This document shows positions 1,091 to 35,114 of a stretch of 35,770 nt of DNA, piece after piece. Source of the stretch: Rickettsiales bacterium (lineage in GTDB: Bacteria > Pseudomonadota > Alphaproteobacteria > Rickettsiales > UBA1997); assembly GCA_947496905.1 (NCBI GenBank), contig CANMEW010000001.1:1-35770 (forward strand), in the 5' to 3' direction. A program made the translations under genes and the position numbers. The notes under the pieces are model-generated. The model was not told the origin of the DNA and did no database searches. It was given only the letters and a program-made list of their open reading frames with translations. The stretch's first letter is position 1, and every line of letters begins with the position of its first letter.

Positions 1091-2509
1091 CTAGACATTT
1101 TCAGAAATGAATTTTCTGACTGAATCAATGTTGTTATCGACTATTTTGAATTTTTCTGGCGCGACAAGAATGCCTTTTAAAAAAGTTGGTAGAGTTGGAG
1201 CTGGAACCTTGGTATCAAATACCGCATCAGAAAATTTTGCTGGATGAGCTGTGGCCAAAGAGATTACAAATTCGTCAGCGTAATTTTCGCTTTTGATGAA
1301 TTCTTGCGAAGCGTGTACGCCAATTGCACTGTGCGGGTCAAGGATCTCGCCAGTTTTTTCAAAAATTTCTTTGATAGTTTTTTTGGTCTCCTCGTCTGAA
1401 ACCGCGTAAGCATCAAATTCTTTTTGGATGTTTTTGAGAATGCACTCATCAACTTTTAGCTTACCATTACGCTCAAATTCTTTCATTAATTCCGGCAATT
1501 TTGCTTCCAATTTTTGCTCCTTGTGCGCGTGAAAAAGTAACCTCTCGAAATTGCTTGAAACTTGGATATTCATGCTTGGAGAGATGGTCTCAATCATGTC
1601 TGATCTACTGTAATTATTTTCTTTGAGGAAGCGAGTGAGGATGTCATTTGCATTGGTTGCAATGACGAGTTTGTTAATGTTTAAGCCCATTTTTTTTGCT
1701 AAAAATCCGGCGTAAATGTCGCCAAAATTTCCACTTGGAACTGTGAATGAAATTGGATTTTTTTCGTCAAATCCAACTCTTAGCGCGGCATAAAAATAAT
1801 AGACAATTTGCGCTAAAATACGGGCGAAATTAATCGAATTAATCGCGACCATTTTTTTACCTTTCAGAAAAGATTTTCCTGCCGCCTCTTCGACAAACAT
1901 TCTTTTTACCATGTCCTGGCAATCGTCGAAATTTCCTTCCACCGCAATGTTAAAAACATTGTCGGCGAGCACCGTGGTCATTTGTCTTCTCTGAACTTCC
2001 GAAACTTTTTGGTGAGGGTGAAGAATAAAAATTTGTGCATTTTTACAAGATTTACATCCCCGAATTGCAGCCGATCCAGTGTCGCCAGAAGTTGCTCCAA
2101 TGATTACGATTTTTTCGCCACGTTTTTGCAGAAAATAATCGAGTAAATTTCCTAAAAATTGCAGAGCGAAATCTTTGAAGGCGAGAGTTGGTCCGTGAAA
2201 AAGTTCCAACAAAAATTGATTGTGACTCAGCTGTTTTAGAGGTGCGATGGCTTGGTGAGAAAAATTCTTGTAAGATTTTTCAACGATTTTTTTGTAAGTT
2301 TCTGGATCGATTTCGCCGTCAATAAAATGTTTTGTGACCTCGAAAAACAATTCTTCGTAGGTCATTTTTTTCATCTTTGAAAAATCTTTTTCATTCAACC
2401 TTGGCAAAAATTCTGGAACGTACAAACCGCCATCAGTCGCCAATCCTTGCAAGACAACTTCTTCAAAAGAAAGAGTGGGAGCGTTAAGTCTAGTTGAGAT
2501 GAATTTCAT
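1091..2509 (-). CDS. thrC: threonine synthase
   Basis: 472 aa. It has the PLP-lysine motif HGPTLAFKDFALQ and the glycine-rich ATSGDTGSAA loop. Confidence 0.93.
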   Translation of the reverse strand: MKFISTRLNAPTLSFEEVVLQGLATDGGLYVPEFLPRLNEKDFSKMKKMTYEELFFEVTKHFIDGEIDPETYKKIVEKSYKNFSHQAIAPLKQLSHNQFLLELFHGPTLAFKDFALQFLGNLLDYFLQKRGEKIVIIGATSGDTGSAAIRGCKSCKNAQIFILHPHQKVSEVQRRQMTTVLADNVFNIAVEGNFDDCQDMVKRMFVEEAAGKSFLKGKKMVAINSINFARILAQIVYYFYAALRVGFDEKNPISFTVPSGNFGDIYAGFLAKKMGLNINKLVIATNANDILTRFLKENNYSRSDMIETISPSMNIQVSSNFERLLFHAHKEQKLEAKLPELMKEFERNGKLKVDECILKNIQKEFDAYAVSDEETKKTIKEIFEKTGEILDPHSAIGVHASQEFIKSENYADEFVISLATAHPAKFSDAVFDTKVPAPTLPTFLKGILVAPEKFKIVDNNIDSVRKFISENV

Positions 2510-2566
2510 TTTAGTACTTTGGGGAATGATTTGATTTTTTAAGGTGAGCTTAGAGCGTGTCTTTAT

Positions 2567-2706
2567 GGCGCCTCTAAAAATTAGATTTTTTCGAGAAATT
2601 TTTAGGCATCCAAATTTTTGAGCAGGAAAGCGTACTACTTGTACGTGCTCGCGAAAAAATTTGGTAACGAAGAAATTACCGAAAAAAGCAATTTTTAGAG
2701 GTGCCC
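2567..2706 (+). mobile_element. family A MITE-like palindromic element (subtype with the ggcatccaaattttt core)
   Basis: Termini are ggcgcctctaaaaatt ... aatttttagaggtgccc. It is near-identical to the reverse-oriented copy at 34958-35098 and has a central gtac...gtac palindrome. ORF 2661-2945 is an artefact of this repeat. Confidence 0.75.
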
Positions 2707-2804
2707 GGAAGGCAAAGAGTCGCTTTTTGCCTCATCTACTCGCAAGTTTATTGGTTTTAAAAAAAGAGAGAGTTGCAATCGCTTCGCTCTTGTCGCGACT
2801 ATTT

Positions 2805-2903
2805 TTCTCTCAGAAAATTAAACCTATTGCGAATGCACGGATTTATTCCGTGCGTAGCAATTCGATCAGCACCAAATTTGAACGAAGTTCGAATTTGATT
2901 AAA
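2805..2903 (+). repeat. family C double-hairpin element (RPE-like), intergenic copy
   Basis: The core 2829-2903 matches the reverse complement of 24063-24137 inside pyrF at 66 of 75 positions (manual alignment). It contains the hairpins gcacgga-tttat-tccgtgc and aaatttgaac-gaa-gttcgaattt. Confidence 0.7.
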
Positions 2904-2938
2904 GCGCGGGCAAGTTACTTCAATCAATCAACAAGTCA

Positions 2939-3436
2939 ATGTTAGGGCAGATGCAGCAAGGAGACAGGCCCGATTACCTTTACCGTAGCGGAGTAGGAAT
3001 TACTCTCATCAATCAGAAAAAAGAAATTTTTGTTGGCAAAAGAATCGACAATAATTCTGACGCTTGGCAAATGCCGCAAGGTGGCATTGATGCTGGAGAA
3101 AGTGAGGATGAGGCGATGTTTCGTGAACTCAAAGAGGAGACAGGAATTCCTAATTTCGGCGTTAAAGTTTTGCAGAAAAGTCAGAAATATCACTACTACA
3201 ATTTGCCTTACAATTTACAGAAAAAATTTTGGGGTGGAAAATATTTAGGACAGAAACAGCGGTGGTATTTGGCGGAATTTATTGGCGATGAAAATCTGAT
3301 CGACATCCATTCTGAAGACCCAGAATTTTCGCATTGGAAATGGATTTCTCGCGACACAATTCTCAGATCCATCGTGGCTTTTAAGCGTGATCTTTACGAA
3401 GAAATTCTAACAGAATTTTCCAGATTTTTTAAATAA
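2939..3436 (+). CDS. rppH: RNA pyrophosphohydrolase (Nudix hydrolase)
   Basis: Nudix box GGIDAGESEDEAMFRELKEETGI. The size and the WQMPQGG context are typical of RppH/NudH. Confidence 0.85.
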   Translation: MLGQMQQGDRPDYLYRSGVGITLINQKKEIFVGKRIDNNSDAWQMPQGGIDAGESEDEAMFRELKEETGIPNFGVKVLQKSQKYHYYNLPYNLQKKFWGGKYLGQKQRWYLAEFIGDENLIDIHSEDPEFSHWKWISRDTILRSIVAFKRDLYEEILTEFSRFFK

Positions 3437-3847
3437 ATGAAACCAGAAATAAATTTTTACCAAGTCGATGAGACCATAATTAAAGCACTTGCACCGCTAC
3501 TTTTAAAAATTTTGGAAGAGGGAAAAAAAGCGTTAATTTTTTGCAGCGATCAAGCACAAATAAAAGCGATTGACGATTCCTTGTGGAGTTACGGACGCAG
3601 TAAATTCATTCCGCATGTGACAATTTCTGACAAGGATTTTTCTTTCGAACGTCAGCAAATTTTAATTTCCAACAAAGAGGAAAATTCCAATCAGGCCGAT
3701 TACTTAGTTTTTTTAAGCGAACCCTCTGCAAACTTTATTTCCAGCTTCTCTCGCGTTTTTTATTTTTTCGAAGAAGGGAAATTTTCTGCCCAATCAAAGC
3801 CAACAAATTTTTACAAAAAAGAGGATGGGAAATGGGTAAAAGTTTGA
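3437..3847 (+). CDS. holC: DNA polymerase III chi subunit
   Basis: 136 aa. The N-terminus NFYQV...ALAPLLLKILEEGKKALIFC...LWSY resembles HolC. It lies immediately after rppH. Confidence 0.75.
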   Translation: MKPEINFYQVDETIIKALAPLLLKILEEGKKALIFCSDQAQIKAIDDSLWSYGRSKFIPHVTISDKDFSFERQQILISNKEENSNQADYLVFLSEPSANFISSFSRVFYFFEEGKFSAQSKPTNFYKKEDGKWVKV

Positions 3848-10989: not shown

Positions 10990-11209
10990 GGAGCCTCTGA
11001 AGCACCAAGTTTTTTAAAAAGTCTCGGCGCCGAGACTTTTTAAACTTTTTACTCAGTTCAGGACTGGCGCGGCTCTGTAAATTTAAATTCGCAAAAAACT
11101 AACAGAAACTCACCATTCAAAAAATGAGCCCTAGAGCTGCAAGGGTTCAACTTTTTAAAATCGTATTTTTTCTGCAGTGTTTTTTGCACTCAATACTGAC
11201 TTCAGAGCC
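10990..11209. mobile_element. long variant related to family A (same ggNgcctctgaa termini, different interior)
   Basis: ggagcctctgaag ... cttcagagcc inverted termini with TAA on both flanks (10987-10989, which is the thiG stop, and 11210-11212). The interior carries a terminator hairpin. Confidence 0.55.
11016..11042 (+). terminator. intrinsic terminator after thiG, located inside the repeat variant
   Basis: aaaaagtctcggcgccgagacttttt: a perfect GC-rich palindrome followed by a T run. Confidence 0.65.
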
Positions 11210-17968: not shown

Positions 17969-18056
17969 TACCGAATCTGATTGAAGACACCGAACTAATC
18001 TTTGTCAGATTCGGCATGGGGTTCCCCACAACGTGGGGCGCGACTCATGTCGCGTA
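17969..18056 (-). repeat. family B multi-hairpin element
   Basis: Its reverse complement aligns with 32667-32763. Both carry the shared hairpins cgcgac-atga-gtcgcg, ccccac-gtt-gtgggg and ccgaatctga...tcagattcgg. It fills the lipA/phoU spacer. Confidence 0.65.
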
Positions 18057-18724: not shown

Positions 18725-18772
18725 TTTGAAGAAAATTTTGGTGAAAGAAGCGCGCTAAAATCAAGCAACTAA

Positions 18773-19128
18773 AGAGAGCCTCTAAAAATTAGAATTTTTC
18801 GAGGAGTTTGCAGTGACGGCGGAGCCGGAAAAATGCATCGCATTTTTAACTGACAAATGACGCAAGGCCGTAAGGCCTGAGTAATTTGCGACTTGTCGAT
18901 AAAAAATAAAATTTTCAAGTAAAACGGGAATGAGCGAAGCGAATCCTTAGGCATCCGAATTTTTGAGCAGGAAAGCGTACTACTTGTACGATTCGAGCAC
19001 AGGGATCGAGCTTAAGCTCGATGCCCGTTCTTACTAAAAATAGCTTCGCATTTTTTTAACGCTCGAACCTCGCGAGCAAATTTGTCTGACGACAAAATTA
19101 CCGGAAAAAGCAATTTTTAGAGGCACTC
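18773..19128 (+). mobile_element. family A element carrying two nested insertions
   Basis: Family A left arm (18773-18809), core (18947-18990) and right arm (19070-19128) are interrupted by ~138 bp (18810-18946) and ~79 bp (18991-19069). The second insert contains the perfect palindrome atcgagcttaagctcgat. Confidence 0.7.
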
Positions 19129-20505: not shown

Positions 20506-21478
20506 TTACTTTACTACCAGACCATATTTTTTACCAAGATAACTCATGACAGAGATTCGATCCGAGCTTTTAAGAACTACGTCAAACATGATTACTTCGG
20601 AGATATGCCCTCTGAATGATGAAAGTACACCAGCATTGGTGGCACCTCTACTAATCCAGAATTCTGTTGGTGAGAGCGCGTCAACCGTAAGAGAAGACGT
20701 AAGAGAAGCTCCAGCTTTGCCGTTAACATATTGAGTAATGGTGCTAAGAGTTGAAAAGCCGGAAGTTGTGACGCAGATAATTTGTGGTATTTTATTGGTG
20801 GTAGGGGAGTCGAAGATGAAAGTCGTCTCGTTCAAAACTTTAACTCCTGTTGCGGAGTAATATTTGAAAATACCAAACCCATCCGTCGCAGTAGTAGTAT
20901 CTCCGCCTCCGTTATTTATAATTCCTTCATTACCAATCGAAAAGTCATTGAACACCACAAAAATTGTTGAGGCATTATTCGTTACTGCCGGCACCGCGGC
21001 TATGACGTTTGTGTGTACAGTGGCGGTTGGAGCGGTGGTAGAGTAAAGTGAGGAAAGAATAAGTCTTCTAAAGGCCGTGCTATCAAAAAAACTTAATGTT
21101 GGTAACCCATTGATGCCATTATTTTTGTAGGTTATTCCAGCAGTTGTGTTATTTGCTGTTAGGGTTGCTGCCGTTGCAGTTTGTGCGATTGCAAAAAGTG
21201 GTGTGGTTGTTTGCGGGTTAATGTCGTTCCACACCGTGATTGGAAAATTATCTTCGGTTTCTGCGGATAAAAAACTCTCTTCCAACGATGTCTCTAGCCA
21301 AAGTGAAAGACCTTTAATGCTGTTAACCGGAGAAGATTTAGTCAGAGACCTTGGAAGCTAGCTTCATTTGACCAACCAACCTTCTACCTTGCGTTACGCC
21401 GGCAACTAAAATTCCGATGATTAAAATTACGATTGAGAGCTCGATTAGGGAGAAGGCTTTGTTTGTTTTAGTTTTCAT
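20506..21478 (-). pseudogene. prepilin-type N-terminal domain / LamG-like domain protein, frameshifted paralog of 26063-26965
   Basis: ATG 21478 gives MKTKTNKAFSLIELSIVILIIGILVAGVTQGRRLVGQMKLASKVSD-stop (21338-21340). The shifted frame continues SLTKSSPVNSIKGLSLWLETS... into ORF 20506-21285 and aligns with the intact paralog. Confidence 0.7.
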
Positions 21479-23938: not shown

Positions 23939-24728
23939 TTAGATTCACAAATTTTTGAGTAGCTTCTTTTGGATGAGTATCGCGGGTGATTGGTCTACCG
24001 ACCACGAGGTGAGAGGCACCATTGGCAAGTGCAGTTTTGACATCGGTAACACGTTTTTGATCTTCAATCAAATTTGAACTTCGTTCAAATTTGGAGCCAA
24101 TCGAATTGCTGCGCACGGAATCAATCCGCGCATCCGCAATAGATTTATTTTCCTTAAAAAGCTCGGTGTCTTTACTCAGCCTGATTCCAGGCGTTACGAT
24201 GAGAAAATCTTTTCCGCAATTTTCTCTAATCTTCTTTGCCTCAAGAGCCGAGGCAACAACTCCATCAAGTCCAAATTCAAGAGCTAGTTTGGCCCTGCCA
24301 AGCACTAAATTTTCGAGTGTATTTCCCGCCTTAAAACCAACAGCTTCCACCGTTCTGTTAAAAATTTCTTGGTCGTAAGTGGTGAGAACGGTTACACCAA
24401 CAACCTTCATTCTACCCTTTGCCTGCGCCGCTGCTTGAATGATGTCTTCACTGATGGCGTGGATCGTAACCATGTCAACTTGATGCTGCGCCAGATTTTT
24501 AATTGCGCGCGAAACTGTGGTGGGGATGTCGTGAAATTTTAGATCAGCGAAAACTTTTTTGCCTTCATCCTTCAAAAATTTGATGAGGTCGAAGTAACCG
24601 CCGCTCATCATCAGCTCTAGTCCAACTTTGTAAAAAACCGCCTCATCGCCAATTGCCCTAACAAGATTCTTTGCCTCCTCAATAGTTGGAACATCGAGGG
24701 CAATGATTAATTTTTCTTTCGCATTCAT
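23916..24728 (-). CDS. pyrF: orotidine 5'-phosphate decarboxylase carrying an in-frame repeat insertion
   Basis: The motifs LIIALDV, DLKFHDIPTTV, TPGIR and VVGRPI are present. I prefer ATG 24728 over the track GTG 24743, which lies inside the flanking repeat. Confidence 0.9.
   Translation of the reverse strand: MNAKEKLIIALDVPTIEEAKNLVRAIGDEAVFYKVGLELMMSGGYFDLIKFLKDEGKKVFADLKFHDIPTTVSRAIKNLAQHQVDMVTIHAISEDIIQAAAQAKGRMKVVGVTVLTTYDQEIFNRTVEAVGFKAGNTLENLVLGRAKLALEFGLDGVVASALEAKKIRENCGKDFLIVTPGIRLSKDTELFKENKSIADARIDSVRSNSIGSKFERSSNLIEDQKRVTDVKTALANGASHLVVGRPITRDTHPKEATQKFVNLISDVYAS
24063..24158 (-). repeat. family C (RPE-like) element inserted in frame in pyrF
   Basis: 96 nt, 32 codons (FKENKSIADARIDSVRSNSIGSKFERSSNLIE) between the conserved GIR and DQKR motifs. 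It is 88 percent identical over 75 nt to the intergenic copy at 2829-2903. Confidence 0.75.
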
Positions 24729-24737
24729 GGCAATTAA

Positions 24738-24879
24738 GGGCACCTCTAAAAATTAGATTTTTTCGAGGAATTTTTAGGAAGAAAATTTGCGAGCAGGAAA
24801 GCGTACTCTGATGTACGTGCTCGCGAGCAAATTTATCTGACGATAAAATTACCGGAAAAAGCAATTTTTAGAGGCACCC
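24738..24879 (+). mobile_element. family A MITE-like palindromic element (reference copy)
   Basis: gggcacctctaaaaatt ... aatttttagaggcaccc with TTAA on both flanks (24734-24737 and 24880-24883). ORF 24679-24864 is an artefact of it. Confidence 0.8.
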
Positions 24880-25482
24880 TTAAAACTTTTTCTCTTCACC
24901 AGTTAGTAGGCGGATAAGATTTTCTTTGTGCTTGATTGTGATTAGGACGAATAGGAGGCAGCAGAAAATTATTTGGGAATTTGGGGCTTCGAAGTGGGAC
25001 GACAAAATGATCGAGGAAAAAATTGCGATTAGCGAAGAAATTGCAGAGATGCGAAATAGGACAAAGGAAATGATCCAAAAACAAACCATTAAAAATCCGG
25101 TGATTGGATCAAGCGCTGACAATACTGCAACTGCAGTTGCTACGCCTTTCCCACCTTTGAAATTTAGATAAATTGGGTAGATGTGACCAATTACCGCAAC
25201 AGCAGCGACAAAGACCAAAAATAAATGCAAATTGCCAACATCGTAAAAAGCAAATCTTGCCGCAATGATCATCGCCGCGCCTTTCAAGCCATCCAGAATT
25301 AAAGTGACGAAGCCGAGTTTTTTACCAACGACTCTCGCAACATTTGTGGCGCCAATATTTTTTGACCCCAATTCACGAATGTCTTTTTTTGCGAAGACTA
25401 TTGCCAAAATTAAGCCGAATGGAATCGCCGCAATCGCGTAGGTTAGGATGAGAAATAGGATTTGGTAAAGAAGGGTGATCAT
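24880..25482 (-). CDS. plsY: glycerol-3-phosphate acyltransferase PlsY
   Basis: 200 aa polytopic membrane protein with GSKNIGATNV and FKGGKGVAT. Confidence 0.93.
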   Translation of the reverse strand: MITLLYQILFLILTYAIAAIPFGLILAIVFAKKDIRELGSKNIGATNVARVVGKKLGFVTLILDGLKGAAMIIAARFAFYDVGNLHLFLVFVAAVAVIGHIYPIYLNFKGGKGVATAVAVLSALDPITGFLMVCFWIISFVLFRISAISSLIAIFSSIILSSHFEAPNSQIIFCCLLFVLITIKHKENLIRLLTGEEKKF

Positions 25483-26062: not shown

Positions 26063-26965
26063 CTATTGGATGGCAATTCCATATTTCTTTCCTAGGTAGC
26101 CATTAACAGCTTTGATCTCTGACTTTTTTAAAGCTCGATCAAAAACAATTACTTCTGAAACTAACATCTCGTTTGACTGAATTACCATGCTCATTGGATG
26201 AGCATGGATCACAAGTCTATCGGCTCCTAAATTTAAGTTTGCTGCGCCACCAGATGATGCCACTCCAGCAGCTGGAACTGAGGTATTACTGTTATTGTAG
26301 ATCCAAACATTATTGGTTAAAGAATTATCAATCACCATGACAGTCGCGTAATTACTATTACCGATTAGTCCGCAAGGGTTGGTATAGCTGTCGTTAAAAT
26401 ATCCAGCAAAACCACACTGAGTATTATTCGTAGCAAACATTGCTTGTGCATTATTTAGTGTAGTATTGGTACCCTGTCCCATGAGTACCTGCGTACCAGA
26501 CATGGTGGTAGCTCTCCACACAATAACCATTGTGTAATCATCGTCGCCAGCGCCAATTGGCGTTGTTGTTGTTTGTAGAAAATCTGATGTACTCTCAAAT
26601 TTTATTGAGGGTAGTCCATTTATTCCGTTTGCGATGTAGACTGGTCGCGCCGCATCTGTTGATTGTGTAAGATTAATTTTATTGAGCGATTGCGGGTTAG
26701 AATCGGCCCAAGAAGAAATTTTATCTAAATCACTCGGATTGTTACCATTGGTAGCGCTTGTAACCGCAGTTTCCGAAGTGGTTTCTAGCCACAAAGTCAG
26801 ATTTGCCATCGATGCTACATCTGAACTTTTTGTAAGAGACCTGCCAGAGGAAAGTTTCATTTCTCCAACCAACCTGCTGCCTTGAGTTACTCCAGCAACT
26901 AAAATTCCAATTATTAAAATTACGATCGATAGCTCAATAAGTGAGAATGCTTTGTTTGTTTTCAT
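26063..26965 (-). CDS. prepilin-type N-terminal cleavage/methylation domain protein with C-terminal LamG-like (concanavalin A-like) domain
   Basis: MKTNKA|FSLIELSIVILIIGILVAG is a class III signal with Glu at +5 and Ala at -1. The C-terminal SEVIVFDRALKKSEIKAVNGYL resembles the terminal strand motif of LamG_3 domains. Confidence 0.75.
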   Translation of the reverse strand: MKTNKAFSLIELSIVILIIGILVAGVTQGSRLVGEMKLSSGRSLTKSSDVASMANLTLWLETTSETAVTSATNGNNPSDLDKISSWADSNPQSLNKINLTQSTDAARPVYIANGINGLPSIKFESTSDFLQTTTTPIGAGDDDYTMVIVWRATTMSGTQVLMGQGTNTTLNNAQAMFATNNTQCGFAGYFNDSYTNPCGLIGNSNYATVMVIDNSLTNNVWIYNNSNTSVPAAGVASSGGAANLNLGADRLVIHAHPMSMVIQSNEMLVSEVIVFDRALKKSEIKAVNGYLGKKYGIAIQ

Positions 26966-26995: not shown

Positions 26996-27486
26996 GCGGG
27001 ACTTCCGGTGGTTTTTTTCTGTTGCCAGGAAAAAACCTAAACCCCGACAAAGTCACTTATGCTAAGCAGCTAAAGCCACTGGAGCAAATTCGAAATTGTC
27101 ATTAGCAAAGTTATCGTTTGCGTTTACTTTTTTTGAACGGATGCGATGAATTCATCCGAAGATGCATTCACGGCCGGCAGTTTCTCAACCGAGTAAAGTC
27201 AATCCCTTTAGCGCATGTCGAAAGCTATTCACCCCCATGTTAGGACTTTTTACAAAATTCGCTTCTGACAATAAGTGGATGGTGAATTGGCGCGCAGAGT
27301 CGGGGTGTATTTGACATACACGTAGACTCGAGCACCGAAACAACCGCGCAATTATTGTCAGAAGTTAGAATTTTGTAAAAAGTCCAATGGTGGAGGTGCT
27401 GGGTACCGCCCCCAGGTCCATGACGGTTATTGCGAAGAGAGTTTATCACCATGTCCTTCCGCCCTTGCGGGCGAAGGCGGCGCGCA
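26996..27486 (-). ncRNA. ssrA: two-piece (circularly permuted) tmRNA gene; outer boundaries approximate
   Basis: The acceptor piece ends ...CUGGG-GGCGGUA-CCCAG-CACCUCC-ACCA at 27388. The coding piece starts GGGGGUGAAUAGCUUUCGAC at 27236, and its first 7 nt pair with CACCUCC, including a G3:U wobble. A 151-nt spacer (27237-27387) forms a ~32-bp stem. The tag ORF ends in ALAA. Confidence 0.85.
27062..27121 (-). other. tmRNA tag reading frame ANDNFANDNFEFAPVALAA plus stop
   Basis: AAAAAAAGUAAAC precedes the resume codon GCA. The frame reads GCA AAC GAT AAC TTT GCT AAT GAC AAT TTC GAA TTT GCT CCA GTG GCT TTA GCT GCT TAG. Confidence 0.8.
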
Positions 27487-27573
27487 ACTTAGGTACGAAA
27501 ACAATTTTAACAAGTTATTGTTCCCAAGTTTTTTGTTTTTACTTTTTTACTCCCCAAAAAAATTTAGAAAAAA

Positions 27574-29175
27574 ATGTCCAAAACAATCCCTTCCTCCTGC
27601 GAATCAAATCCCACAAATCGAAAAAAAGTCATCATTCTTGGATCGGGTCCGAACCGCATTGGACAAGGCATCGAGTTTGACTACACTTGCGTTCACGCCG
27701 CATTCGCTTTTAAAGAAAATGACGTGGAAGCAATCATGGTGAATTGCAATCCAGAAACAGTTTCAACTGACTACGACACTTCTGATCGCCTTTATTTCGA
27801 GCCACTCACCGCTGAAGACACAATCGAGCTCATCAAAAAAGAAATGACCAATGGCGAATTGCTCGGCGTCAATGTGCAGTTCGGAGGTCAAACCCCACTT
27901 AGTCTCGCCAAATTTTTGCAAGACGAGGGTGTGCCAATCATCGGCACCTCACCAGACATGATCGACCTCGCTGAAGATCGCGATCGCTTCAAAAAATTAC
28001 TGCAAAAACTCGACCTAAACCAGCCACAAAATTACATCGCCTATTCCGCAAAACAGGTTCTTGAACAAGTTAATGAGGTCGGATTTCCGGTTGTTGTTCG
28101 ACCTTCCTACGTGCTTGGTGGGCGCGGCATGGCAATCGTTTACAATGAATCCTATTTGATGAAATATCTCGTTGAATATGCAGATGTTTTTGAAACCGGA
28201 CCATTGCTGCTCGATAAATTTTTAACCGATGCAATTGAGGTGGATGTGGACGCGCTGTGCGATGGAGAAGAAGTGTTCGTTGCTGGCATCATGCAACACA
28301 TTGAAGAAGCCGGCATCCATTCTGGAGATTCTGCCTGTTCAATTCCGCCTTATTCTCTTTCTCAAAAAATGATTGATGAGGTGAAGGTAGCTACGAAAAA
28401 ACTGGCGCTAGCCTTGAATGTGAAGGGCTTGATGAATGTTCAATATGCCATTCAAGATGAAAGGCTTTTTGTTTTAGAGGTGAATCCAAGGGCATCTCGT
28501 ACCGTGCCATTCGTGGCTAAAGCAACTGGCATCGCTGTGGCAAAAATCGCCTCGCTAATCATGATTGGGAAAAAACTTTCCGAGTTCAAATTGCAGGAAA
28601 AAAAGCTGAATTATTTTGCCGTCAAAGAAGTGGTTTTCCCATTCGCCCGCTTCAGCAATACTGACACAATTTTGGGACCAGAAATGAAATCGACTGGAGA
28701 AGTGATGGGGATCGACAAAACCTTCGCCCTAGCCTTCGCCAAAGCTCAAGTTGCAGCTGGAGTAAAACTCACCACCGATGGCTTAGTTTTTCTTTCCGTC
28801 AAAGATTCTGACAAAAAATATCTGCCAGAAATTTCCAGAAAATTAATTGAGATCGGATTTAAACTTGTTGCCACTCGCGGCACCGCAAAATTCCTCGCCG
28901 AAAATGACATCGCAGTTACAATCGTGAATAAAATTACCGAGGACAAACCTCACGTTGTTGACATGATCGATCGCAAGGAAATTTCCCTCGTCATCAACAC
29001 CACTGAGGGCGAGCAAGCCACGAAGGACAGCTTTTCAATTCGTCGCACTTCTTTGATGAGAGGCGTGAGCTACACCACCACAATCTCCGGAGCCAAAGCC
29101 TTGGTTGATGCCATCGAGGCCTACAAAAATAACGGCTGCAAATTTGAAGTCCGCGCTCTGCAAGATTTGGGATAA
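27574..29175 (+). CDS. carB: carbamoyl-phosphate synthase large subunit, C-terminal half only
   Basis: 533 aa. It starts [36 protein letters not shown], which corresponds to the start of the second ATP-grasp repeat of CarB. It continues through the MGS-like allosteric domain. No N-terminal half lies upstream. Confidence 0.9.
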
Positions 29176-29317
29176 AGGAACCTCTGAAAAACCATCTTTT
29201 CCGGAAATTTTTTCGTTACCAAATTTTTTCGCGAGCACGTACATCAAGGTACGCTTTCCTGCTCAAAAATTTGTTGCCTAAAAATTTCTCGAAAAATCTA
29301 GGTTTTTCAGAGGCTCC
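29176..29317 (-). mobile_element. family A MITE-like palindromic element (ctctgaaaa terminus variant)
   Basis: aggaacctctgaaaaacc ... tttttcagaggctcc. It is flanked by TAA 29173-29175 (the carB stop) and TAA 29318-29320. Confidence 0.8.
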
Positions 29318-29341
29318 TAAAATTTTCTTAGACCCAGATCC

Positions 29342-30733
29342 CTACTTCAAATTCTTCACAATCTCTTCGACGACTTTTTTAGCATCGCCGAAAATCATTA
29401 GCGTGTTGTCCTTGTAGAATAGCTCATTCTCAACTCCGGCGTAGCCCGCTGCCATTGAACGCTTCACAAAGAAAACAGTTTTTGCATGCTCAACATCCAA
29501 AATTGGCATGCCGTAAATTGGACTGTCCTTGTCAGTTTTTGCTGCTGGATTAGTGACGTCATTGGCACCAATCACGAAGGCGACATCGGTTGATTTGAAC
29601 TCGCCGTTAATGTCATCCAACTCGAAAACTTTTTCGTAATCGATGTTGGCTTCGGCGAGTAGAACATTCATGTGACCCGGCATTCTTCCCGCTACTGGAT
29701 GAATCGCGAATTTCACATTCACACCCGCTTCTTCTAGCAACTTCGTCATTTCCGCAACCGCATGCTGCGCACCTGCAACCGCCATTCCGTAACCAGGAAT
29801 AATTACCACAGAGGAAGCGCCTTTCATTAAATAAGCGGCATCTTCGGCATTACCTTGCTTGGTTGGTCTTTGCTCCTTCTCCTCCCCAGTAACCGCTTGA
29901 ACCTGATCGCCAAATCCAGAAAACATCACATTGAGAATTGAGCGATTCATCGCCTTGCACATGATGTAACTGAGGATTGCGCCAGATGCACCAACCAAGG
30001 CTCCAGCAATGATGAGAAGTGGATTATTGAGCGTGAAACCGATGCCACTTGCCGCCCATCCCGAATAGGAATTTAGCATGGAGACCACGACCGGCATGTC
30101 TGCACCACCAACGGGAGCAATCAGCATGAAGCCGATGAAGAAGGAAAGTAGCGTGAGTAGGATGAATAAAAATTTTGAACCAAAAATAAAAAATGCTAGC
30201 AGCACAATTCCCAAGCCAATCGCCACATATTTAGAAGATTTTTTTGGGTCTTTTTTGAAGATGATGAATTTTGATTTCATGTTGCCGTTGAGCTTGAGGA
30301 AGGCAACGATGGAGCCGGTGAAGGTGATGGCGCCGATTACTGCACCAATGCCCATTTCGATCAGGCTAGAGAATTTGATGTGATTATCTTCGACTAGATT
30401 GAAAGAATTTGGCGACCACAGAGCGCTTGCCGCGATTAGCACTGCAGCCAATCCAACCAAAGAGTGAAAGCCGGCAACAAGTTGTGGCATTGCGGTCATT
30501 TTAACTTTTCTGGCGATGTAGGCGCCAATCCCGCCGCCAATCGCGATTGCCACAATGATGGTAAAAACATTTTTAACCTGCGGCAAAAACAGCGTGGTTA
30601 GAATCGCTAAACCCATTCCCGCCATGCCAAAATAATTTCCGATGCGCGAAGTTTTTGGCGAGGAAAGTCCGTAGAGCGAAAGAATGAAGAGGGTGGCTGA
30701 AACTAGGTAGGAGAAGGCAATGAAGCTGTTCAT
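29342..30733 (-). CDS. pntB: NAD(P) transhydrogenase subunit beta
   Basis: 463 aa with an N-terminal polytopic membrane domain and a C-terminal NADP(H)-binding domain ([30 protein letters not shown]). Confidence 0.93.
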
Positions 30734-31045: not shown

Positions 31046-31192
31046 GGGCGCCTCTGAAAATTAGATTTTTTCGAGAAATTTTGAGGAAAAAAATTGCGCC
31101 GAGCGCAGAAAGCTTACTCTGATGTACGTGCCGTGCTGCGCAAATTTATCTGACGATAAAATTACCGAAAAAAGCAATTTTTAGAGACACCC
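31046..31192 (+). mobile_element. family A MITE-like palindromic element
   Basis: gggcgcctctgaaaatt ... aatttttagagacaccc. The flanks are cTAA (31042-31045) and TTAA (31193-31196). TTA at 31193-31195 is the queH stop codon on the minus strand. Confidence 0.8.
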
Positions 31193-31853: not shown

Positions 31854-32722
31854 ATGCCCGAATTGCCAGAGGTAGAGACGATCCGCAAAGGCTTGAAAAG
31901 TTTGAGTGGAAAGAAAATCGAGAGAATTTTTCGCTCAGAAAAAAATTACGAACTGCTTCAAACCTTGATTTACAAGGCTTAGACGGTGCAGAGATTTTGA
32001 AAATCACTAGAAGAGCTCGTTACTTAATTTTTCAATTCAGCAACGAAAAAAGTCTAATCATTCACTTGGGAATGAGCGGAAAACTCACGCTGAGCAAAAC
32101 CTTCAATCACCTAAAGCACGACCATTTTGCCTGCAAATTTAACGATGCTTCTTGGTTAATTTTTAACGATCCGCGACGTTTTGGATTCATTGACTTGGTC
32201 GAAACTAAAAATTTAGAAAATCATCAAATGCTGGAGAATCTCGGTCCCGAGCCGCTTTCGAAAGATTTTAATTTTGCTTACCTTCGACAAAAACTGCGTG
32301 GCAAAAAAATGAACATCAAGACCAGCATGATGGACAATAAAATTGTTGTTGGGGTCGGAAATATTTACATCAACGAGTCGTTGTTCGACTCAAAAATTTT
32401 ACCACTACGCGAAGCATCAAGCTTGGAAGATTTTGAAATTAAAGCGCTCATCACCTCAATCAAAAAAATCATAAAAAAAGCAATCGCCTTGGGAGGGTCA
32501 TCAATCTCAGATTACGTTAATGCCAAAGGAGATTCGGGGAATTTCCAAAACTGGTTTAAAGTCTACGGGCGCGCGGGGCAAAAATGTTTGCATTGTAAAA
32601 GTTCGATCGAAAGACTCATCCGGAGCGGCCGCTCGAGCTTCTTCTGCCCAACCTGTCCAAATTCTTTACGCCGCACGAGCGGCGCCCCACGTTGTGTGGA
32701 ACCCCATACCGAATCTGATTAA
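31854..32722 (+). pseudogene. mutM: formamidopyrimidine-DNA glycosylase with a frameshift in an A7 run
   Basis: [14 protein letters not shown]... (31854-31982) stops after 42 aa. The next frame reads [33 protein letters not shown]...HLGMSGKL and runs to the zinc finger CLHC...CPTC. One extra A in 31939-31945 would restore a single ORF. Confidence 0.85.
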
Positions 32723-33170: not shown

Positions 33171-33190
33171 GTGGTGATTCGAAATCTAGG

Positions 33191-33346
33191 CATTGTTAGC
33201 TAATTATTTCTTTCGGGATTTTTCGTTAATTTTTAGCGATTTTTTTACAAAATTTTGCCGATGCATTCTACATACCTCAAAAAATTTTGTGAAAAAATGA
33301 GCCAAAATTGACGGAAAAGAGCGGAGAAAATAATTAGCTAACAGTG
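33191..33346. repeat. long imperfect palindrome (about 65-bp arms), single copy in the window
   Basis: tgttagctaattatttc (33194-33210) pairs with gaaaataattagctaaca (33326-33343). The arms remain similar inward. The right arm contains the stop codon of the Fe-ADH gene. Confidence 0.55.
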
Positions 33347-34503
33347 TCTAAGCAAGTAAAGCGGTTTCGGATAAATTTTGCATTGGTCACGCAAGCAGCA
33401 TATTCAGCATTCGAAAGCCCTAATGACCTCGGAGAAGTTTTAATTTTGAAGTGTGAAAAAATCGCCTTTAGGCGCGATTCATCGAAATAAATTTTCTGCA
33501 AATCTTTTTGAATTTTTTTCCAATCCACCTCCGAAGGTGCGCTGATCTCAGCCTTCATTTCAAACTCTTTCCCGCATTGCAGCGCGATTTTTTTTCCAAA
33601 AAATTTTTCTAATTTTTTTAGCGAAAATTCGCATTTTTTAACAAGCGGTAGTGCGCAATTTTCCAACAGGTTTTTTTGCAACCTCGCTGAAGTTAATGTC
33701 GTCACTGCGATTTGCGCCCCGTGCAAAATTTCCCTGACAATTTTCGGATATTTCATTCCAATTGTGTGGGCAATTAGATGCTCCGATTGACTTGCTGGGT
33801 AAGAGCCTCCGGCAATTGTCATCCCCCTCCCAGAAAGTAATAAAATTTCAATTAATAGCTTGAGAAAAGCATCGTCGCGCAAAGAAAAATTCTGAAAATT
33901 TTTGGTGAAAAAATTCATTTTTTTTGCGAGTAGTAAGAAGGGTTTTTGATCGAATTCTGTGCCGCAAATTTTGTGGGATAAATACCAGTCAAACCAGCAG
34001 GAATAAAAACAAAGACTGTCACCAATGCCAGCCTTTGTAAGCGCCAATGGCGCTGATTGTAAAATTCCTAAATCACAAAAAATTACCAAAGGCAATGTGG
34101 CCGGAAGAGTTTTTTTGTGACCAGAAATTGTGATTGAAGCATTTTTGGATGCGTAGCCGTTCATCGATGCAGCTGAGGCGAAAATTACGTAAGGAATTTT
34201 TTTCTGCGCCGAGGTAAATTTACACAAATCATTGATGGTGCCGCTTCCAAGACCAATTAGCAGATCACATTTTTTTGTAGCAGCGGCAATTTTTTTTAGA
34301 TTTTTTTCGTCAGCATGCGGATTTTTTAGCAGTAAAATTTTGTCGATTTTTTTGATAAAATTTTCGTCAAAAAAACGCCGACAATTTTTCCAAATTTTTT
34401 CATCACTGACGAATAAAATTTTGCCATCCGCAAAGCCTAATTGAGCAATTAAGCTTTCTGCTTTCACCGCTAGAGCCGTCGCTATTTCTACATTTCCTGA
34501 CAT
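33334..34503 (-). CDS. iron-containing alcohol dehydrogenase family protein (Fe-ADH_2 / glycerol-1-phosphate dehydrogenase-like)
   Basis: 389 aa. The glycine-rich GLGSGTINDLCKF nucleotide-binding motif and the HxxxH-type region SEHLIAHTIG are present. The specific substrate cannot be inferred. Confidence 0.55.
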   Translation of the reverse strand: MSGNVEIATALAVKAESLIAQLGFADGKILFVSDEKIWKNCRRFFDENFIKKIDKILLLKNPHADEKNLKKIAAATKKCDLLIGLGSGTINDLCKFTSAQKKIPYVIFASAASMNGYASKNASITISGHKKTLPATLPLVIFCDLGILQSAPLALTKAGIGDSLCFYSCWFDWYLSHKICGTEFDQKPFLLLAKKMNFFTKNFQNFSLRDDAFLKLLIEILLLSGRGMTIAGGSYPASQSEHLIAHTIGMKYPKIVREILHGAQIAVTTLTSARLQKNLLENCALPLVKKCEFSLKKLEKFFGKKIALQCGKEFEMKAEISAPSEVDWKKIQKDLQKIYFDESRLKAIFSHFKIKTSPRSLGLSNAEYAACVTNAKFIRNRFTCLDTVS

Positions 34504-34612: not shown

Positions 34613-34957
34613 ATGGACAATCTTCAATTATTCCTACTAGTTCTTCAGATAATCATTGCCCTTGCTCTAATAATTTTAGTTCTGTTACAAAAATCAGACG
34701 GTGACATTTTGAGCGGCATTGGCGGCGGTTCAGGAGGCTTAAATTCTGCAATGTCTGGCAAGGCTGCGATGAATGCTTTAAGCAAAACCACAATGATTTT
34801 AAGCGGCCTTTTCATGCTTAACTGCCTAGTTCTCGCTTCAATTTCGAATGCCTCCAATAAAGCGATTAAAAAGGATTTAGAAAAAATTATCGAGCAACAA
34901 GAAAAAATCGAAGGCGCCACAACTCCAACCACTCCAGCCGTTCCCCCAGTAGAATAA
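34613..34957 (+). CDS. secG: preprotein translocase subunit SecG
   Basis: 114 aa. There are two TM helices separated by the glycine-rich loop LLQKSDGDILSGIGGGSGG. Confidence 0.88.
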   Translation: MDNLQLFLLVLQIIIALALIILVLLQKSDGDILSGIGGGSGGLNSAMSGKAAMNALSKTTMILSGLFMLNCLVLASISNASNKAIKKDLEKIIEQQEKIEGATTPTTPAVPPVE

Positions 34958-35098
34958 GGGTATCTCTAAAAATTGCTTTTTACGGAAATTTTGTCGTTAC
35001 CAAATTTTTTCGCGAGCACGTACAAGTAGTACGCTTTCCTGCTCAAAAATTCGGATGCCTAAAAATTTCTCGAAAAAATCTAATTTTTAGAGATACCC
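34958..35098 (-). mobile_element. family A MITE-like palindromic element
   Basis: gggtatctctaaaaatt ... aatttttagagataccc, with perfectly complementary 9-bp tips. It is flanked by ATAA on both sides (34954-34957, containing the secG stop, and 35099-35102). Confidence 0.8.
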
Positions 35099-35114
35099 AT
35101 AAACCTCTTTCAAC

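Follow-up and report, generated by a model that had tools for sequence, protein, structure and literature searches.

A probable family of palindromic MITEs inserted between housekeeping genes of a Rickettsiales genome

The Correia elements of Neisseria duplicate a TA dinucleotide (2 bp) upon insertion, possess outward-directed promoters together with an IHF site, and are subject to cleavage by RNase III. The RUP elements also duplicate TA, and an IS630-type enzyme is believed to mobilize them in trans. Here, we describe a family of short palindromic elements, designated family A, in a stretch of 35,770 nt from an alphaproteobacterial genome labelled Rickettsiales (contig CANMEW010000001.1 of assembly GCA_947496905.1), hereafter referred to as the window. 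The Correia elements (CREE/NEMIS) resemble family A in several respects, as they are ~100–150 bp long, bounded by terminal inverted repeats, densely distributed, mostly intergenic and without a known autonomous partner (PMC10969869 and general knowledge). They are also co-transcribed as long hairpins (PMC10969869 and general knowledge), as copies of family A inside operons would be. Family A differs from the Correia elements in its 4–5 bp target duplication, in the absence of a promoter consensus from our scans and in having no sequence similarity to them.

Other described systems offer further points of comparison. The ERIC/IRU and RUP elements are imperfect palindromes of ~107–127 bp that are intergenic and transcribed with their neighbours (general knowledge; PMC10969869), but they occupy different hosts and have different sequences from family A. 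The Rickettsia palindromic elements (RPEs) are palindromic repeats of ~150 bp, of which several families have expanded in particular lineages (PMC10969869). Judged by description, RPEs and family A are alike in being palindromic and in belonging to an alphaproteobacterial lineage labelled Rickettsiales; however, RPEs often occupy protein-coding genes, in frame, and specify a conserved peptide, whereas the copies of family A are all intergenic. TIMEs (Tn3-derived MITEs) are at least 262 bp long with 38-bp Tn3-type repeats (PMC4133298), and the repeats of the Tn3 family begin with GGGG (PMC6506621). TIMEs resemble the present elements in their AT-rich targets, in the 5-bp duplications seen in the sister family described below and in the likeness of the family A outer terminus to the Tn21 repeat (PMC4133298, PMC6506621). 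The AT-rich duplication made by TIMEs is 5 bp, rarely 6 bp, in contrast to the 4 bp duplicated by family A, which is itself only ~140 bp long. Overall, family A works like the Correia, ERIC and RUP elements in its size, structure, density and in that no partner was found, and it differs from these and from the RPEs in the length of its duplication and in being confined to intergenic DNA, and from the Correia, ERIC and RUP elements also in sequence.

A profile HMM built from five full copies and searched with nhmmer recovered the five full-length copies that had been listed by an earlier, sequence-only reading of the window, with E values of 1e-35 to 1e-42 (Table 1), and direct- and inverted-repeat searches agreed with the profile. 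One of these copies had been placed at 29176–29317; the copy is real but starts at 29177, base 29176 being part of the target duplication. The nested copy reported at 18773–19128 was recovered as three nhmmer fragments (18777–18831, 18942–18990 and 19069–19126), and two insertions unrelated to it, of 133 bp (18809–18941) and 78 bp (18991–19068), divide it. A solo arm reported at 1051–1089 was also recovered, with slightly wider bounds. Full copies are 139–147 bp long with a pairwise identity of 71–92 % and a mean column identity of 82 %, and the homology runs along the entire element rather than being confined to a motif. The proposal of two subtypes held up, as the copies at 2567 and 34958 are 92 % identical and those at 24738 and 31046 are 87 % identical. 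There are seven family A loci in the window and two more elsewhere on the same scaffold, one of the latter being partial, and a homologous family exists in related organisms. The sequence-only reading had put the combined coverage at about 1.3 kb, which is correct as a sum (1327 bp, 3.7 % of the window), although family A proper accounts for only ~0.9 kb. Its statement that the copies lack coding capacity was also borne out: the short ORFs at 2661–2945, 18769–18954 and 24679–24864 are present and cross copies, but only chance ORFs do so.

Table 1. Coordinates of family A copies, of their flanking target sequences and of a separate element with related termini. The strand of family A is that reading GGGCRCCTCTAAAAATTAGATTTTTTCGAG ... 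GAGCAGGAAAGCGTAC-N5/6-GTACGTGCTCGCGA ... ACCGAAAAAAGCAATTTTTAGAGGYRCCC
Feature	Position	Strand	Evidence and details
Solo left arm of family A (profile positions 1–43)	1047–1089	−	nhmmer 26.7 bits, E 5e-6; between glyQ and thrC
Family A copy	2567–2706	+	nhmmer 141 bits; hairpin −57.3 kcal/mol, z −9.0; GGCGCC...GGTGCCC, canonical orientation
Separate 220-bp element	10990–11209	+	termini GGAGCCTCTGAAG...CTTCAGAGCC; TAA on both flanks
Nested family A copy, three pieces	18774–18808, 18942–18990, 19069–19128	+	sequence
TTAA duplication of the copy at 24738, left copy	24734–24737	.	right copy 24880–24883, contains plsY stop codon
Family A copy	24738–24879	+	nhmmer 145 bits; between plsY stop codon and pyrF start codon
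TAAA flanks of the copy at 29177	29173–29176 (contains stop codon of carB-like gene) and 29318–29321		sequence
Family A copy	29177–29317 (nhmmer 29178–29316)	−	129 bits; between convergent carB-like gene and pntB
Flanks of the copy at 31046	CTAA 31042–31045; TTAA 31193–31196, contains queH stop codon		sequence
Family A copy, diverged central core	31046–31192	+	nhmmer 122 bits
ATAA flanks of the copy at 34958	34954–34957 (contains secG stop codon) and 35099–35102		sequence
Family A copy	34958–35098	−	nhmmer 137 bits; between secG and gcvT

Each full copy of family A has inverted arms of 17–33 nt at its ends, with inverted termini of ~17–20 bp that start with GG or GGG. Shared inverted termini had been described before and are indeed present, but the consensus given for them was too strict, as GGCGCC, GGGCACC, GGGTATC and GGAACC all occur. 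Similarly, the central palindrome had been described with a spacer of six nucleotides, which applies to two copies, whilst the spacer is 5 nt in two others; the core is diverged in the copy at 31046 and interrupted in the nested copy. The claim that did not survive concerned the 220-bp element, which had been taken for a long variant of family A. This element gave no nhmmer match and has only the related terminus (GGAGCCTCTGAAG / CTTCAGAGCC) in common with the family. It is unique in the window by blastn and lacks internal homology to family A; judged by its sequence, it is a different element with family-A-type ends, which may be moved by the same enzyme. The 220-bp element lies directly after a stop codon and contains a perfect 32-bp palindrome at 11013–11044.

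The flanks of the copies provide evidence of insertion. Exact 4-bp duplications were found at three copies, namely TTAA (24738), TAAA (29177) and ATAA (34958), and two further copies showed matches at three of the four positions (CTAA/TTAA at 31046 and TAAA/CAAA at 18774). By our own estimate, rather than by a tool-computed test, an exact 4-nt match would arise by chance at a rate of ~0.007 in AT-rich flanks, and three out of five is far beyond chance. The flanks of the copy at 2567 do not show a target duplication, which we count against a transposition reading. Four of the duplications include the stop codon of a neighbouring gene (the carB-like gene, secG, plsY and queH). Duplication of the target thus preserves the stop codon, and the insertion leaves the upstream protein unaltered.

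An empty site could be identified for the copy between plsY and pyrF. The gene order sspB-plsY-pyrF is conserved in ~28 relatives (loci L008–L035 and L107), in which the gap between plsY and pyrF is roughly 1–60 nt. In the window this gap is 151 nt and is made up of the 142-bp element and the second TTAA. When the element and one TTAA are removed, the junction reads ...AAG TTT TAA TTGCC ATG..., the layout seen in the relatives. The possibility that the terminal AGAGG of the element serves as the pyrF ribosome-binding site was rejected, as it lies 14 nt from the ATG.

Exact-protein look-ups revealed that the same uncultured bacterium has also been assembled as ERZ28614158 scaffold_255 and as GCA_964202855.1. 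Look-ups with SecG, PhoU, GlyQ and PlsY returned the same species only, with the copies in place in all cases. Comparison of these assemblies identified insertion polymorphism. At the exact right end of the copy at 2567, scaffold_255 carries 250 bp that neither the window nor a third assembly contains, and this block consists of a 106-nt unrelated repeat together with a family A copy close to the 29177 type. A 68-bp piece (18854–18921) inside the first insertion of the nested copy is absent from GCA_964202855.1. The window and scaffold_255 thus differ. With the insertions within the nested copy, the 68-bp piece makes three levels of nesting at one site. Contigs start or stop inside copies, as expected for a high-copy repeat. 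Inverted termini, target-site duplications, an empty site and presence/absence polymorphism together demonstrate transposition.

The genes that flank the copies are ordinary housekeeping genes (glyQ, thrC, phoU, purD, pyrF, plsY, the carB-like gene, pntB, queH and secG). As the sequence-only reading had stated, the copies lie between unrelated genes; all are intergenic, and they occur in either orientation. In a placement test of 34 correctly delimited distinct copies from both families (36 calls, two of which had inverted coordinates and were excluded), none was located inside an ORF of at least 110 aa. Orientation relative to the flanking genes was unbiased, with the left neighbour on the minus strand in 17 cases and the plus strand in eight, and the right neighbour on the plus strand in 11 and the minus strand in 12. 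A scan of the copies for consensus promoters and terminators found none except a single site in the diverged core of the copy at 31046, where a terminator-like hairpin is followed by a T run on the minus strand (31107–31095), downstream of queH.

Flanked by the copies at 29177 and 31046, the gene pntB (29342–30733) stands alone, with the carB-like gene and queH as its neighbours. In the closest relatives, whose PntB proteins are 87–89 % identical, the order is kpsF-like, pntB, efp, dapF, ccmH. Because the pntB neighbourhood differs from that of the closest relatives, the family A copies mark a rearrangement. Composite transposition of pntB by the two flanking copies was considered but discarded, as each of them carries a separate duplication and TAAA on one outer flank contrasts with TTAA on the other.

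A scan of one genome per species gave no match to the exact central core of family A, so the species' representative lacks it. Among species representatives, the nearest are metagenome-assembled genomes from freshwater that are labelled Alphaproteobacteria or Rickettsiales and whose PlsY proteins are 51–76 % identical. When the core pattern was relaxed slightly, it matched 72 metagenome stretches, ~65 of which carry a homologous element of ~145 bp, and many of these matches lie at contig ends, as expected of an assembly-breaking repeat. This sister family, which also occurs once in a related genome (L022), can be aligned with family A from end to end; the interior is common to both families, and the termini differ (GGCGCTGTCGC(GT)AAATCAAG... 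in the sister family). Exact 5-bp AT-rich direct repeats flank the sister element at 18 of 29 distinct sites, with four of five bases matching at five more, and include CTAAT, TTTAT, TTAAT, AGAAT, ATAGT and ACAAG. A 4-bp duplication in family A and a 5-bp duplication in a homologous family is unusual for relatives, and we count it against a transposition reading.

The 26 closest related loci (L008–L033, 390 kb) contain a single profile match, so the expansions are lineage-specific. One of these loci (L008) contains an unrelated 105-bp element with sister-type ends, and two other loci (L130 and L141) contain solo family-A-type ends; both types of end therefore circulate in the clade. Viral contigs scanned with both terminus types gave no match, and a sensitive blastn search of plasmid records returned chance matches only. 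Rfam gave no match at gathering thresholds or at relaxed E values, and a sequence-string search of the literature with the terminus strings retrieved only IS26 papers and unrelated primers. The sequence-only reading had not recognized a named family, and these searches of Rfam, plasmid records and literature strings agree. The family is previously undescribed, whilst the kind of selfish DNA to which it would belong, the MITE, is well known.

Every full copy folds into one long hairpin, as had been predicted, with free energies of −43 to −62 kcal/mol and z scores of −4.2 to −9.7 against dinucleotide shuffles. An alignment of six family A and 22 sister copies yielded a consensus hairpin of 40 pairs, in which 98.1 % of cells were paired and both sides had changed in 19 of the 40 pairs. 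The covariation score was 0.302, compared with 0.123 in shuffles (none of 500 reached the observed value) and at most 0.071 for slid partners. The arms are kept complementary over their whole length by paired changes, which reach the outermost bases and differ there by subfamily (GGCGC, GGCAC, GAGTC, GAGAC and GGGTA). Such changes along the whole stem, termini included, are not predicted by simple end recognition by a transposase, and this too is counted against a transposition reading. The paired changes fit three causes that the data do not separate, namely a single-stranded or RNA hairpin under selection, enzyme variants coevolving with the elements, and template switching. That the whole-length hairpin, and not the ends alone, is the target of selection or of the transposition machinery seems to us decidedly improbable. 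If it were, the elements could move or be copied through a single-stranded fold-back intermediate, with an enzyme that still makes staggered cuts in the target, or the host could use the copies as double-stranded RNA punctuation in operons. Template switching during replication, which would correct near-palindromes, offers a neutral alternative of at least equal likelihood.

The question of parentage was approached through the termini. In ~1.9 Mb of loci we found no transposase gene flanked by matching ends, which again counts against a transposition reading. A search for an autonomous partner, covering termini paired at a distance of 0.25–12 kb and any ORF enclosed by inverted repeats in the manner of an IS, returned only housekeeping genes caught between two copies (such as thrC, pntB, katG-like and argS). 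The solo family-A-type terminus in L141 was discarded as the end of a transposase-bearing element, as it abuts genes for NEL/LRR effectors. Derivation from a Tn3-family transposon, in the manner of TIMEs, or from an IS6/IS26-like insertion sequence, with the corresponding enzyme as mover, is an alternative that we regard as unlikely, although the termini do provide leads in both directions. Within positions 3–17 of the Tn21 inverted repeat (GGGGGCACCTCAGAAAACGG..., PMC6506621), 14 of the 15 bases agree with the family A terminus GGGCACCTCTGAAAA, and the sister family resembles Tn3-family elements and TIMEs (PMC4133298) in its 5-bp AT-rich duplications. However, the termini begin with GG or GGG instead of GGGG, the TAAG expected at the inner edge of a 38-bp repeat is missing, and the target duplication of family A is 4 bp where that of Tn3-type elements is 5 bp. 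The sister terminus GGCACTGTCGCAAA, on the other hand, agrees with the 14-bp IS26 end GGCACTGTTGCAAA in all but one base (13 of 14). Target duplications in the IS6 family are 8 bp long, as against 5 bp for the sister family and 4 bp for family A. The two leads thus point to different transposon families, yet the two MITE families are homologous, and neither a Tn3-family nor an IS6 transposase was found in the loci searched. On the sequences compared, the resemblances to Tn21 and IS26 are leads, and membership of either family is not established.

Two further explanations dispense with a conventional transposase. The elements could be palindromic units mobilized as single-stranded hairpins by a tyrosine (HUH) transposase, as in REP/RAYT or IS200/IS605-like systems, which would suit the compensatory changes that maintain the full-length hairpin and the conservation of the hairpin tip between two families with different outer termini. 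Tip conservation is, however, partly by construction, as the tip was in the pattern used to find sister copies. REP/RAYT and IS200/IS605 systems leave no target-site duplication, whereas here duplications of 4 and 5 bp are frequent and exact; moreover, the elements have true terminal inverted repeats, and no RAYT or TnpA gene was seen in the window or the examined loci, making this route very improbable. We give equally little credence to the copies being host regulatory or RNA modules (terminators, attenuators, RNA-stabilizing hairpins or a structured RNA family) whose spread is secondary. It is true that the hairpins are very stable on both strands, that the canonical strand is the more stable as RNA in four of five copies, that copies sit at gene ends and within operons, and that the core of the copy at 31046 provides its terminator-like site downstream of queH. 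Against a host module are the unbiased orientation, the lack of consensus promoters and terminators in the scanned copies apart from that one site, stems that are not followed by T runs, and the absence of an Rfam match. Target duplications and the empty site represent insertion events, and the single homologous copy in 390 kb of the 26 closest loci implies that no conserved host function requires the element.

Our data are best accommodated by a model where family A is a MITE family that inserts at AT-rich, TAA-containing tetranucleotides and duplicates them, which we consider highly probable. The label 'MITE-like' given by the sequence-only reading suits dispersed elements that are short, noncoding, bounded by terminal inverted repeats and flanked by target duplications, and for which an empty site is available. 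A transposase acting in trans would make staggered cuts 4 bp apart, or 5 bp apart in the case of the sister family. The target is often the stop codon of the upstream gene, which the duplication retains, and copies within operons, such as that between plsY and pyrF, would be transcribed as long RNA hairpins that do not terminate transcription.

Such a MITE family provides a clear natural example of a compact bacterial genome that tolerates a burst of selfish DNA. With TAA in the target, stop codons and tight operon junctions are hit, and restoration of the stop by the duplication leaves the upstream protein unchanged. The copies also have practical consequences, as they break metagenome assemblies and create spurious ORFs, and they could be masked during the annotation of freshwater alphaproteobacterial genomes. 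Insertion polymorphisms among the assemblies of one species are possible strain markers in lake time series. Lastly, paired changes along the whole hairpin, combined with differing termini, make these families a useful case for studying how symmetry is kept up in palindromic mobile elements.

Several other repeats and features were observed alongside family A. The window encodes a two-piece (permuted) alphaproteobacterial tmRNA at 27007–27517 on the minus strand (140 bits), which spans 511 nt against a model of 355 positions and contains a long internal inverted repeat (27230–27260 with 27368–27398). An inverted repeat with 70-nt arms that are 77 % complementary lies at 33187–33350, between a hypothetical gene and a gene for an iron-containing alcohol dehydrogenase, and is possibly a further palindromic element. 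Positions 21360–21469 and 26853–26962 form a direct repeat of 110 nt (85 % identical); the second copy extends across the start of a prepilin-like (N_methyl) gene, and the pair may represent paralogous gene starts. In L141, from the organism that carries the sister family, genes for a NEL-type E3 ligase and a leucine-rich-repeat protein lie side by side (1697–3614), and proteins of these two kinds are typical of effectors aimed at eukaryotic hosts.

A short repeat family (GCGCCCCACGTTGTGGGGAACCCCATACCAAATCTGATTT...) is present in the window at 32682–32720 and 18005–18042, and in related loci (L163, 8228–8333 and 15281–15346; L152). On scaffold_255, one copy of this repeat adjoins the polymorphic copy of family A; in L152, a copy of the sister family is interrupted by a similar motif. 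A 20-nt inverted repeat, CCCTCGACTCCGCTCGGGGA, flanks efp on both sides in a related genome (L168, 11416–12399; L169, 1780–2763), which suggests yet another small repeat family in the clade.
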